Origin: Escherichia coli
Lineage (GTDB): Bacteria > Pseudomonadota > Gammaproteobacteria > Enterobacterales > Enterobacteriaceae
DNA: 64,000 nucleotides
Direction: 5' to 3' (one strand)
Assembly: GCF_003334305.1 (NCBI RefSeq)
Contig: NZ_QOWS01000008.1
Shown here: positions 26,242 through 44,305 of the stretch, one piece after another
Layout of the letters: every line of letters starts with the position of its first letter
Position numbering within the stretch: position 1 is the stretch's first letter
The notes under the pieces: model-generated
What the model was told of the DNA's origin: nothing
Seen by the model: only the letters and a program-made list of their open reading frames with translations
Databases searched by the model: none
Position numbers and translations under genes: made by a program

Positions 26242-26310
26242 TGCCGGATGCGCTTCGCTTATCCGGCCTACACGCGATGCCAGGTCAGATAAGCGAAACG
26301 CATCCGACAT
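26242..26310. repeat. REP (repetitive extragenic palindromic) elements between ugpB and ugpA
   Basis: TGCCGGATGCGCTTCGCTTATCCGGCCTACA and a second inverted copy GCGATGCCAGGTCAGATAAGCGAAACGCATCCGACAT. Confidence 0.7.
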
Positions 26311-27870: not shown

Positions 27871-27962
27871 TGCCGGATGCGGCGTAAAGGCCTACAAGAT
27901 CGTGCAAATTCAATATATTGCAACTCACCCAGTAGGCCTGATAAGCGCAGCGCATCAGGCAA
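27871..27962. repeat. pair of inverted REP elements (BIME-like) between livF and ugpB
   Basis: TGCCGGATGCGGCGTAAAGGCCTACA ... GTAGGCCTGATAAGCGCAGCGCATCAGGCAA. Confidence 0.7.
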
Positions 27963-33706: not shown

Positions 33707-33806
<100 letters not shown>

Positions 33807-41759: not shown

Positions 41760-43958
41760 ATGTCGACTCCTGACAATCACGGCAAGAAAGCCCCTCAATT
41801 TGCTGCGTTCAAACCGCTAACTGCGGTACAGAACGCCAACGACTGTTGCTGCGACGGCGCATGTTCCAGCTCGCCAACGCTCTCTGAAAACGTCTCCGGC
41901 ACCCGCTATAGCTGGAAAGTCAGCGGCATGGACTGCGCCGCCTGTGCGCGCAAGGTAGAAAATGCTGTGCGCCAGCTTGCAGGCGTGAATCAGGTGCAGG
42001 TGTTGTTCGCCACCGAAAAACTGGTGGTCGATGCCGACAATGACATTCGTGCACAAGTTGAATCTGCGGTGCAAAAAGCAGGCTATTCCCTGCGCGATGA
42101 ACAGGCCGCCGAAGAACCGCAAGCATCACGCCTGAAAGAGAATCTGTCGCTGATTACGCTAATCGTGATGATGGCAATCAGCTGGGGTCTGGAGCAGTTC
42201 AATCATCCGTTCGGGCAACTGGCGTTTATCGCGACCACGCTGGTTGGGCTGTACCCGATTGCTCGTCAGGCATTACGGCTGATCAAATCAGGCAGTTACT
42301 TCGCCATTGAAACGTTAATGAGCGTAGCCGCTATTGGTGCGCTGTTTATTGGCGCAACGGCTGAAGCTGCGATGGTGTTGCTGCTGTTTTTGATTGGTGA
42401 ACGACTGGAAGGTTGGGCCGCCAGCCGCGCGCGTCAGGGCGTCAGCGCGTTAATGGCGCTGAAACCAGAAAACGCCACGCGCCTGCGTAACGGTGAGCGT
42501 GAAGAGGTGGCAATTAACAGCCTGCGCCCTGGCGATGTGATTGAAGTTGCGGCGGGTGGGCGTTTGCCTGCCGACGGTAAACTGCTCTCACCCTTTGCCA
42601 GTTTTGATGAAAGCGCCCTGACCGGCGAATCCATTCCGGTGGAGCGTGCGACGGGCGATAAAGTTCCTGCAGGCGCCACCAGCGTAGACCGTCTGGTGAC
42701 GTTGGAAGTATTGTCCGAACCGGGAGCCAGCGCCATTGACCGGATTCTGAAACTGATCGAAGAAGCCGAAGAGCGTCGCGCTCCCATTGAGCGGTTTATC
42801 GACCGTTTCAGCCGCATTTATACGCCAGCAATTATGGCCGTCGCCCTGCTGGTAACGCTGGTGCCGCCGCTGCTGTTTGCCGCCAGCTGGCAAGAGTGGA
42901 TTTATAAAGGCCTGACGCTGCTGCTGATTGGCTGCCCGTGTGCGTTAGTTATCTCCACGCCCGCGGCGATTACCTCCGGGCTGGCAGCAGCGGCACGTCG
43001 TGGGGCGTTGATTAAAGGCGGAGCGGCGCTGGAACAGCTGGGTCGTGTTACTCAGGTGGCGTTTGATAAAACCGGTACGCTGACCGTCGGTAAACCGCGC
43101 GTTACCGCGATTCATCCGGCAACGGGTATTAGTGAATCTGAACTGCTGACACTGGCGGCGGCGGTCGAGCAAGGCGCGACGCATCCACTGGCGCAGGCCA
43201 TCGTACGCGAAGCACAGGTTGCTGAACTCGCCATTCCCACCGCCGAATCACAGCGGGCGCTGGTCGGGTCTGGCATTGAAGCGCAGGTTAACGGTGAGCG
43301 CGTATTGATTTGCGCTGCCGGGAAACATCCCGCTGATGCATTTGCTGGTTTGATTAATGAACTGGAAAGCGCCGGGCAAACGGTTGTGCTGGTAGTACGT
43401 AATGATGACGTGCTGGGTATCATTGCATTGCAGGATACCCTGCGCGCCGACGCAGCAACTGCCATCAGTGAACTGAACGCGCTGGGGGTTAAAGGAGTGA
43501 TCCTCACCGGCGATAATCCACGCGCAGCGGCGGCAATTGCCGGGGAGCTGGGGCTGGAGTTTAAAGCGGGCCTATTGCCGGAAGATAAAGTCAAAGCGGT
43601 GACCAAGCTGAATCAACATGCGCCCCTGGCGATGGTCGGTGATGGTATTAACGACGCGCCAGCGATGAAAGCTGCCGCCATTGGGATTGCAATGGGCAGT
43701 GGCACAGACGTGGCGCTGGAAACCGCCGACGCAGCATTAACCCATAACCACCTGCGCGGCCTGGTGCAAATGATTGAACTGGCACGCGCCACTCACGCCA
43801 ATATCCGCCAGAACATCACTATTGCGCTGGGGCTGAAAGGGATCTTCCTCGTCACCACGCTGCTAGGGATGACCGGACTATGGCTGGCGGTGCTGGCAGA
43901 TACCGGTGCGACCGTGCTGGTAACAGCGAATGCGTTAAGATTGTTGCGCAGGAGATAA
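41760..43958 (+). CDS. zntA: Zn/Cd/Pb-exporting P1B-type ATPase
   Basis: 732-aa ORF; N-terminal GMDCAACARKVE metal-binding motif, membrane CPC motif, DKTGT phosphorylation site, GDGINDAPA. Confidence 0.96.
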   Translation: MSTPDNHGKKAPQFAAFKPLTAVQNANDCCCDGACSSSPTLSENVSGTRYSWKVSGMDCAACARKVENAVRQLAGVNQVQVLFATEKLVVDADNDIRAQVESAVQKAGYSLRDEQAAEEPQASRLKENLSLITLIVMMAISWGLEQFNHPFGQLAFIATTLVGLYPIARQALRLIKSGSYFAIETLMSVAAIGALFIGATAEAAMVLLLFLIGERLEGWAASRARQGVSALMALKPENATRLRNGEREEVAINSLRPGDVIEVAAGGRLPADGKLLSPFASFDESALTGESIPVERATGDKVPAGATSVDRLVTLEVLSEPGASAIDRILKLIEEAEERRAPIERFIDRFSRIYTPAIMAVALLVTLVPPLLFAASWQEWIYKGLTLLLIGCPCALVISTPAAITSGLAAAARRGALIKGGAALEQLGRVTQVAFDKTGTLTVGKPRVTAIHPATGISESELLTLAAAVEQGATHPLAQAIVREAQVAELAIPTAESQRALVGSGIEAQVNGERVLICAAGKHPADAFAGLINELESAGQTVVLVVRNDDVLGIIALQDTLRADAATAISELNALGVKGVILTGDNPRAAAAIAGELGLEFKAGLLPEDKVKAVTKLNQHAPLAMVGDGINDAPAMKAAAIGIAMGSGTDVALETADAALTHNHLRGLVQMIELARATHANIRQNITIALGLKGIFLVTTLLGMTGLWLAVLADTGATVLVTANALRLLRRR

Positions 43959-43964
43959 GGCAAA

Positions 43965-44028
43965 CCGATCGCAACATTGAGCGCGATCGGTCCCCTCGCT
44001 CCTCTGGGGAGAGGGTTAGGGTGAGGGG
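43965..44028. repeat. GC-rich hairpin plus inverted-repeat element in zntA-tusA spacer (probable convergent terminators / dispersed repeat)
   Basis: CCGATCGC-N10-GCGATCGG 8-bp stem hairpin followed by CCCCTCGCTCCTCTGGGGAGAGGGTTAGGGTGAGGGG with internal CCCCTC/GAGGGG symmetry. Confidence 0.45.
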
Positions 44029-44059
44029 AAAAGGCGGCATCGAAGCCAATCTTTCCCCA

Positions 44060-44305
44060 TCAACCGCCTTTACGAATCAAATAACGATAAGGCAGTCCAT
44101 CCGTCTCTTTCGCAACCAGTTCGTGTTCCATAAAGGTACAAAACCCAGGAATATCGCGGGTCGTCGCCGGATCGTCGGCGATAATCAGTAAAGTTTCGCC
44201 AGGCTGCATATTGCGCACGGTTTTGCGCACCATCATCACCGGTTCCGGGCAGCGCAGGCCAAGCGCGTCGAGTGTGTGGTCAGGGCTGGAAAAGAGATCG
44301 GTCAT
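44060..44305 (-). CDS. tusA: sulfur carrier protein TusA
   Basis: 81-aa [36 protein letters not shown] with the CPxP active-site motif. Confidence 0.95.

Follow-up and report, generated by a model that had tools for sequence, protein, structure and literature searches.

A BoxC repeat between zntA and tusA in Escherichia coli: identity, unit boundaries, copy number and strain polymorphism

The zntA-tusA spacer and its stem-loops

The window analysed here is a stretch of 64 kb of Escherichia coli DNA. In this window zntA and tusA are convergent and leave a spacer of 101 bp, 43959-44059, as delimited from the sequence and the ORF list. The gene names were taken from annotated E. coli records with identical DNA. 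In brief, the spacer is a composite, and its centre, approximately 43972-44031, is a single copy of the enterobacterial repeat BoxC. The features are listed in Table 1.

Table 1. Features of the zntA-tusA spacer and its borders, in window coordinates.
Feature	Position	Strand	Description	Basis
zntA CDS (732 aa)	41760-43958	+	left border; stop TAA 43956-43958	ORF list
Hairpin left arm	43964-43972	.	ACCGATCGC; locus-specific flank except for the last base, which is the first base of the BoxC unit	sequence, folds
Whole BoxC unit, approximately 60 nt	43972-44031	+	21-nt 5' extension, 36-nt core and GAA	alignment with ten K-12 copies
BoxC 5' extension (degenerate)	43972-43992	+	CAACATTGAGCGCGATCGGTC here; family consensus approximately YAAWAnnGnGCACGGACGGTC	
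Hairpin right arm	43983-43991	.	GCGATCGGT; inside the BoxC 5' extension; aligns with family consensus GCACGGACGGT	
36-nt core	43993-44028	+	CCCTCGCTCCTCTGGGGAGAGGGTTAGGGTGAGGGG	sequence; genome-wide copy count
Core C block	43993-44001	+	CCCTCGCTC	sequence
Core loop	44002-44006	+	CTCTG	sequence
Core first G block	44007-44015	+	GGGAGAGGG	sequence
Core loop	44016-44018	+	TTA	sequence
Core second G block	44019-44027	+	GGGTGAGGG	sequence
Core final base	44028	+	G	sequence
Third stem-loop	44025-44058	.	GGGGAAA (44025-44031) pairs with TTTCCCC (44052-44058); inner GGC/GCC stem	folds
tusA CDS (81 aa)	44060-44305	-	right border; stop TGA 44062-44060	ORF list

A preliminary description of this DNA had pointed to a structured, GC-rich gap of 101 bp between convergent zntA and tusA. 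The sequence is as described there, and inspection and folding reveal three stem-loops in the spacer. The 121 nt around it fold better than all 200 dinucleotide shuffles on each strand, with z-scores of -3.65 on the plus strand and -5.05 on the minus strand. The term GC-rich holds in a relative sense only: the G+C content of the spacer is approximately 59% and no higher than that of the adjacent zntA coding sequence, 56-62%.

The first stem-loop is a perfect hairpin of 9 bp, with a loop of 10 nt between ACCGATCGC and GCGATCGGT. It had been described with an 8-bp stem (CCGATCGC..GCGATCGG); the hairpin is there, and one base pair has to be added to its stem. The predicted RNA energy is -14.8 kcal/mol on the plus strand and -17.6 kcal/mol on the minus strand. 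The 38 nt that hold the hairpin, 43955-43992, are single-copy in 4571 of 5426 complete E. coli genomes, and the hairpin is identical in 4560 of these 4571. This near-invariance may reflect selection or merely recent common ancestry. The left arm is missing from strains that carry a BIME at the locus. Each arm of the hairpin contains CGATCG (43965-43972 and 43983-43990), so that two Dam sites (GATC) are present at a distance of 18 nt. In the right arm, GCGATCG resembles the cyanobacterial HIP1 palindrome, probably by coincidence.

The sequence that follows the hairpin had been noted for its internal symmetry and G-tracts, and this was correct. It includes the string CCCCTCGCTCCTCTGGGGAGAGGGTTAGGGTGAGGGG, located at 43992-44028, in which the C block of the core pairs imperfectly with the first G block. 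The third stem-loop is absent from the preliminary description. Its GGGGAAA consists of the end of the core plus flank, and its TTTCCCC lies just before the tusA stop codon. It is locus-specific and only partly conserved in K-12, where CAGCCCCT replaces the CTTTCCCC of the window.

Within the 64-kb window there is a single occurrence of the 22-nt G-rich part and a single one of the 26-nt hairpin (chance expectation 0.00 each), and this BoxC copy is the only one in the window. The REP palindromic-unit consensus (e.g. CCTTATCCGGCCTAC) was not found in the spacer at up to 2 mismatches, and we reject membership of the spacer in the REP/BIME family on this ground. REP palindromic units are present elsewhere in the window, with matches at 26257-26271, 27932-27946 and 33721-33786, those at 33721 and 33772 forming an inverted pair.

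Identity, unit boundaries, copy number and strain polymorphism of the BoxC copy

Holder et al. (2015) define the TMECO motif by the consensus CCCTCNCCC-N3-6-GGGNGAGGG-N3-GGGNGAGGG[G/T/C] (PMC4666352). Positions 43993-44028 fit this consensus except for one base, T for C at 44000, and the K-12 orthologue fits it exactly. Entry no. 16 in Table 1 of Holder et al. (2015) is CCCTCGCCCCTCTGGGGAGAGGGTTAGGGTGAGGGG, at 3,608,684-3,608,719 of MG1655 (PMC4666352). In NC_000913.3, zntA ends at 3,608,649 and tusA occupies 3,608,751-3,608,996. The element thus begins 35 nt past the zntA stop in K-12, exactly as in the window (43958 + 35 = 43993), and is therefore orthologous to TMECO no. 16. Member 40 of the HPG1 family of Kaplan et al. 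(2016) is also located between zntA and tusA (PMC5100583).

The TMECO motif was formerly named BoxC and PIT (PMC4666352). The BoxC family has thus already been described under four names, and the zntA-tusA copy itself has been catalogued twice. We regard the identification of the element as BoxC, taken alone, as virtually beyond doubt. The spacer needs no new explanation, since both the family and this copy have been in the literature since 1992-2016.

Like BoxC (Bergler et al. 1992), the element is a G+C-rich imperfect palindrome, intergenic and dispersed, and belongs to the same sequence family. One of the aligned K-12 copies adjoins fabI (envM), where BoxC was first described. The unit of approximately 60 nt found here agrees with the published 50-56 bp (PMC2267715), and nothing essential differs from BoxC, the window copy carrying T for C at one position of the C block when compared with K-12. 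The K-12 orthologue is a TMECO element of type A, with TTA as second loop and one mismatched triplet. Copy number and strain-to-strain instability match the published descriptions of PIT elements (Hoyne et al. 2000; Hoyne and Maher 2002) and of TMECO motifs (PMC4666352). The strict regular expression of TMECO is missed by one base (CCCTCGCTC versus CCCTCNCCC), and the PIT and TMECO papers define the triplex part of 34-37 nt only, without the 21-nt 5' extension. HPG1 comprises the same G-quadruplex-forming tract with the C-rich region upstream (PMC5100583). Kaplan et al. (2016) see in it a putative regulatory switch, whereas none of our tests supports regulation.

Like BoxC, the REP/BIME elements of E. 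coli are short repeats with secondary structure that occur in 3' untranslated regions and between convergent genes, but their sequence is unrelated to BoxC. REP elements have transposases of a known family as partners, and roles in mRNA stabilisation and protein binding are documented for them. To our knowledge, BoxC has neither a partner transposase family nor such roles.

The change from C to T at 44000 is the sole difference between the window core and the K-12 core, and it weakens one pair of the stem formed by the C block and the G block. The T-bearing core has an exact match somewhere in 3363 records. In the one case that we checked, an O157:H7 genome, it sits at the zntA-tusA locus.

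The boundaries of the unit were drawn from an alignment of the window copy with ten K-12 copies, i.e. the K-12 orthologue and nine further single type-A copies from MG1655. In this alignment of eleven copies the motif C..GTC beside the core is invariant, and partial conservation extends over approximately 21 nt. GAA directly 3' of the core is common to the window copy and the ten K-12 copies. The 5' extension is too degenerate to be detected by BLAST. The left boundary, at approximately 43972, is also the point where B2-type strains regain similarity after a BIME.

Since the unit is approximately 60 nt long and includes the 21-nt 5' extension, BoxC supplies both the loop and the right arm of the hairpin, and all that is locus-specific is the left arm of 8 nt. 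The similarity of B2-type strains resumes exactly at CAACATTG, and the hairpin is therefore best seen as an accident or local refinement, produced where BoxC meets a complementary flank, and not as an independent module. The preliminary description had proposed a 64-bp element, hairpin plus G-rich part, as the repeat unit. This has to be abandoned: the left arm is single-copy flank, and the loop and right arm lie in the degenerate extension. The hairpin, eye-catching as it is, should not be taken as a separate terminator module, and the spacer can now be annotated as BoxC with defined unit boundaries.

We queried the spacer in three parts, the left 38 nt, the 36-nt core and the right 36 nt, against the 5426 complete E. 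coli genomes. The core was found in 5409 of them at E <= 0.01, with a median of 14 places per genome, 25 at most, and 22-23 in the closest complete genomes. In 4975 genomes the right flank is single-copy; it varies among strains. These counts bear out the earlier suggestion of a boxC-like dispersed repeat, for which a genome-wide copy count had been proposed: the core is multi-copy, matches the BoxC/PIT/TMECO consensus and is catalogued at the same locus, and the flanks are single-copy. Holder et al. (2015) list 23 TMECO copies in K-12 (PMC4666352), and surveys of the Petrillo type recover BoxC as a family of 50-56 bp with 22-32 copies (PMC2267715). In later surveys it figures as a family of 56 bp with about 32 copies.

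All ten type-A copies fetched from MG1655 are intergenic. Six of these ten single copies, the zntA-tusA copy included, lie between convergent genes, and all ten are within approximately 50 nt of a stop codon.

Among complete E. coli genomes we found five configurations of the spacer. The first is the 101-bp form with hairpin and BoxC, present in approximately 4571-4956 genomes (about 84-91%). In the second, found in B2-type strains such as GPEC1031 and CEA601S, a BIME precedes BoxC and the spacer measures 260-268 bp. The third, in strain UPEC 536, is BIME plus BoxC with IS1397 in the BIME. The fourth is a decayed core that has lost 8 nt of the third block, in strain CEA601S, and the fifth, in strain STN0717-11, consists of a small ORF and a BIME with no core.

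In strains GPEC1031 (positions 221-489 of the fetched locus) and CEA601S (221-481), three REP palindromic units, the BIME, take the place of the left arm of the hairpin. The similarity to the window restarts after the BIME at CAACATTG, i.e. at the left boundary of BoxC. In strain CEA601S the core (420-455 of the fetched locus) has changed from GGGTTAGGGTGAGGGGAAAAGG to GGGTAAGGGAAAGG, which accounts for the loss of 8 nt, and the flank carries extra substitutions. In strain UPEC 536 (1-360 of the fetched locus) an element of the IS1397 family interrupts the loop of the third palindromic unit and adjoins BoxC; zntA lies outside the 400 bp fetched leftward. IS1397 is known to target REP palindromic units, and the insertion in strain UPEC 536 agrees with this.

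The locus of strain STN0717-11 (250-810 of the fetched locus) has a terminator-like hairpin, GCCTGATAGCC-TCTG-GCTATCAGGC, after zntA. This is accompanied by an ORF for a hypothetical protein of 102 aa (WP_000385056.1) on the minus strand and by a BIME. The 5' extension of BoxC (CAAAATTGAGCGCGATCGGTC) is kept, the core is absent, and the 3' end of tusA has also diverged. Taken together, the zntA-tusA locus is a compact example of how BoxC, BIME and IS1397 pile up in convergent gaps.

Termination, plasticity and structure

Three alternatives to a copy devoid of dedicated function were weighed. In order of likelihood these are a bidirectional terminator or RNA stabiliser, a selected hotspot of variation and a triplex or quadruplex switch.

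The spacer resembles an intrinsic terminator in that G+C-rich stems lie right past two stop codons and that the tail of the hairpin is partly U-rich on the minus strand. It differs in having no U-tract on the plus strand and a hairpin loop of 10 nt, and in not being called by a pattern scan. On the plus strand no T run follows any of the three stems, and the combination of G+C-rich stem-loop and U-tract that defines an intrinsic terminator is therefore missing. The only terminator-like feature is found on the minus strand, where the hairpin is followed by TTTGCCTTATCT (UUUGCCUU) and could serve tusA. By the same definition this is a borderline case, with TTTGCCTT after the hairpin and the long loop. 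A pattern scan for promoters and terminators gave no site within the spacer.

A search against Rfam at permissive thresholds gave no family above its gathering threshold. The best match was Hrs13, with 19.7 bits against a threshold of 52, and it aligns the minus-strand hairpin and its tail to the Hrs13 terminator, a likeness of shape only. We reject membership in Hrs13, as the match is far below threshold and can be put down to a terminator-like hairpin of a generic kind on the minus strand.

At MG1655 3,608,5xx-3,608,8xx no curated 3' end is listed in the Term-seq data of Adams et al. (2021); this is one data set, in which low expression of zntA and tusA could hide such an end. The TERMITe supplements mention neither zntA nor tusA. 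Neither the pattern scan nor this Term-seq set gives evidence of a terminator in the spacer, in keeping with the preliminary description, which had preferred a dispersed repeat to a simple terminator. Adams et al. (2021) also list a Rho-dependent region on the minus strand at MG1655 3,607,955 (approximately 43264 in the window); it is antisense to zntA and lies approximately 800 nt beyond the tusA stop. Such a position would fit read-through of the spacer by tusA transcripts. A second Rho-dependent region in the same study, at MG1655 3,606,645 on the plus strand, falls inside zntA (approximately 41954 in the window). Hoyne and Maher (2002) are cited as having detected neither promoter nor terminator activity in reporter assays of PIT elements.

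It could be argued that the three stem-loops act as a bidirectional terminator, or as a barrier to exonucleases protecting zntA and tusA transcripts in the manner of REP, and that BoxC has been retained for this reason. The spacer does lie between two stop codons and folds significantly on both strands when compared with shuffles, and the minus-strand hairpin is followed by UUUGCCUUAUCU and bears a weak likeness to the terminator of an Rfam sRNA. The K-12 type-A copies are all near gene 3' ends, 6 of 10 between convergent genes, and Kaplan et al. find it plausible that copies located within an operon, between its genes, act as terminators (PMC5100583). On the other hand, the pattern scan is empty in the spacer, no curated Term-seq 3' end falls there, and the Rho-dependent region on the minus strand lies some 800 nt further on. 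Strains that lack the left arm of the hairpin or the core are, moreover, common. The missing U-tract on the plus strand, the missing 3' end in the one Term-seq set and the negative PIT assays of the literature make the terminator reading weak, though less so for tusA. We consider it unlikely that BoxC is retained in the spacer for such a role.

The polymorphism of the locus could also be read as a function, BoxC being kept as a selected hotspot of plasticity that promotes local recombination, slippage and insertion. At least five configurations of one spacer within E. coli are consistent with this. Holder et al. found local variability raised at motif sites compared with control intergenic regions, mostly in the form of small deletions and mutations of the motif (PMC4666352). 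Any structure-prone repeat, however, would be expected to give rise to such variability as a by-product just as well, and selection for evolvability is hard to sustain. Between about 84% and 91% of the genomes retain the 101-bp arrangement, and the BIME and IS1397 events affect REP sequences next to BoxC and not BoxC itself. A selected hotspot is therefore, in our opinion, improbable.

The core was folded with RNA and with DNA parameters. RNA parameters predict a hairpin of -19.7 kcal/mol on the plus strand and -12.2 kcal/mol on the minus strand, and allowing G-quadruplexes leaves this minimum unchanged. When DNA parameters are used, the isolated G-rich strand of the core is predicted to be most stable as a quadruplex. 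Holder et al. (2015) demonstrated an intrastrand triplex in vitro for single strands by CD and NMR (PMC4666352), and Kaplan et al. (2016) an ion-dependent switch between quadruplex and hairpin by CD (PMC5100583). It should be noted that these published data were obtained with consensus oligonucleotides and not with the T variant of the window.

From such data one may picture a regulatory structural switch, in which the G-rich strand alternates between duplex, hairpin, triplex and G-quadruplex and locally modulates transcription or replication. The core has four G3 tracts with 3-nt loops and a complementary C block upstream, and both the in vitro structures and the quadruplex predicted with DNA parameters favour the idea. 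Against it, in vivo DMS footprinting gave no evidence of a triplex, and the double-stranded form was an ordinary duplex (PMC4666352). Neither promoter, terminator nor polymerase effects were seen in vivo, and no functional class is enriched among the neighbouring genes (PMC4666352). RNA parameters favour the hairpin over the quadruplex, and the C-to-T change of the window copy weakens the C block. We give very little credence to a switch at this locus.

What we favour, with some reserve, is that the element is a BoxC copy, orthologous to that of K-12, which has no dedicated function here and whose minus-strand hairpin is a weak terminator of tusA at most. Identity, copy number, unit boundaries and polymorphism among strains are shown by the data above; that the copy serves no purpose of its own here, and that it may weakly help to end tusA transcripts, we infer.

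BoxC would accordingly be a dispersed, non-coding repeat of approximately 60 nt, lacking an associated gene or a known means of spread. In the 3'-to-3' gap between zntA and tusA its insertion would be harmless to promoters, and the copy would be transcribed only as part of 3' untranslated regions. The C block would pair with the first G block into an imperfect hairpin, in place of which G-rich oligonucleotides may, according to the literature, adopt a triplex or G-quadruplex in vitro. Eight flanking bases would happen to complement the BoxC 5' extension and so create the 9-bp hairpin. On the minus strand this hairpin, followed by UUUGCCUU, may contribute weakly to the ending of tusA transcripts. 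The main consequence of the copy would be local structural instability, in the form of the deletion, decay and neighbouring insertions seen in other strains.

Some observations speak against a copy without dedicated function. The core is very strongly conserved within E. coli. The position of all ten K-12 type-A copies near gene 3' ends would also fit a role in 3' untranslated regions, and it may be for no other reason than weak expression of zntA and tusA under the conditions sampled that a Term-seq 3' end is missing. For the zntA-tusA locus itself, the identification matters little.

The motif beyond E. coli and on mobile elements

Holder et al. report the motif class from more than 260 prokaryotes (PMC4666352). 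We scanned one genome per species for CCCTCNCNC-N3-6-GGGNGAGGG-N3-GGGNGAGGG and obtained at least 120 loci in at least about 21 genomes; no Enterobacteriaceae are among the matches listed. These include Verrucomicrobia, Thermodesulfobacteriota, Neisseria, Pseudomonas, Sphingomonas, Chloroflexi and Ignavibacteriales, an assembly of Gracilibacteria and one of Methanomicrobiaceae. The three-block core is thus multi-copy in many phyla, with at least 138 copies in the 120 or more loci and with lineage-specific flanks. By our own estimate, chance matches to 23 specified bases would number at most a few over the entire collection, and the enrichment across phyla is therefore real.

The box beside the core is alike in Pseudomonas (CgaTCaGnC) and E. 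coli (CGGACGGTC). In the Thermodesulfobacteriota assembly Yes70-41, many copies have a fourth block, CCCCTCACCC, upstream, and this makes a full palindrome of two C and two G blocks. The three-block form may accordingly have arisen by truncation of a longer hairpin. In assembly GL140_5 the core is embedded in a unit of approximately 106 nt, TTAGTGCCTTACG...ATAAAAAGAACGTTGTTGCCC-core-TTGCGGGCTCCGCCCGCGTTAG, of which there are two subtypes. The end of a contig is often no more than a few hundred bases away from these units, which is what one would expect of a repeat numerous enough to break assemblies.

We clustered every ORF of 100 aa or more located no further than 2 kb from a motif copy (at least 138 copies in at least 120 loci of at least about 21 genomes). 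Among the matches listed, and at the level of clusters spanning more than four genomes, no protein family or transposase-like partner recurs next to the motif. The only cluster spanning six genomes looks spurious, produced by reading through the repeat: of the four members listed, three overlap a motif copy.

The many copies in very distant lineages are hard to square with pure neutrality and therefore suggest active spreading or selection on structure. The core and the short 5' box may be the cis-recognition site of a spreading or copying mechanism shared across distant prokaryotes. This idea is based on the near-identical multi-copy cores from Verrucomicrobia to an archaeal assembly and on the similar box in E. 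coli and Pseudomonas. We think it improbable. If true, the zntA-tusA copy would be a fossil or a still-active substrate of that mechanism. The wider question, not first raised here, is why a near-identical motif of 33-36 nt is multi-copy in unrelated phyla.

The BoxC unit matches 3 of 50,697 phage records. Of the 72,556 plasmid records, 196 match; among them are E. coli entries as large as a chromosome (4.8-4.9 Mb) and many from Sinorhizobium, Azospirillum and Rhizobium. The unit being nearly absent from phages and rare on true plasmids, we reject mobile elements as the usual vehicle of BoxC. The records of the Campylobacter phages A18a and A11a (174 kb) have three places each that match the unit, the best with 94% identity; the host is an odd one, and contamination or misassembly may be involved.
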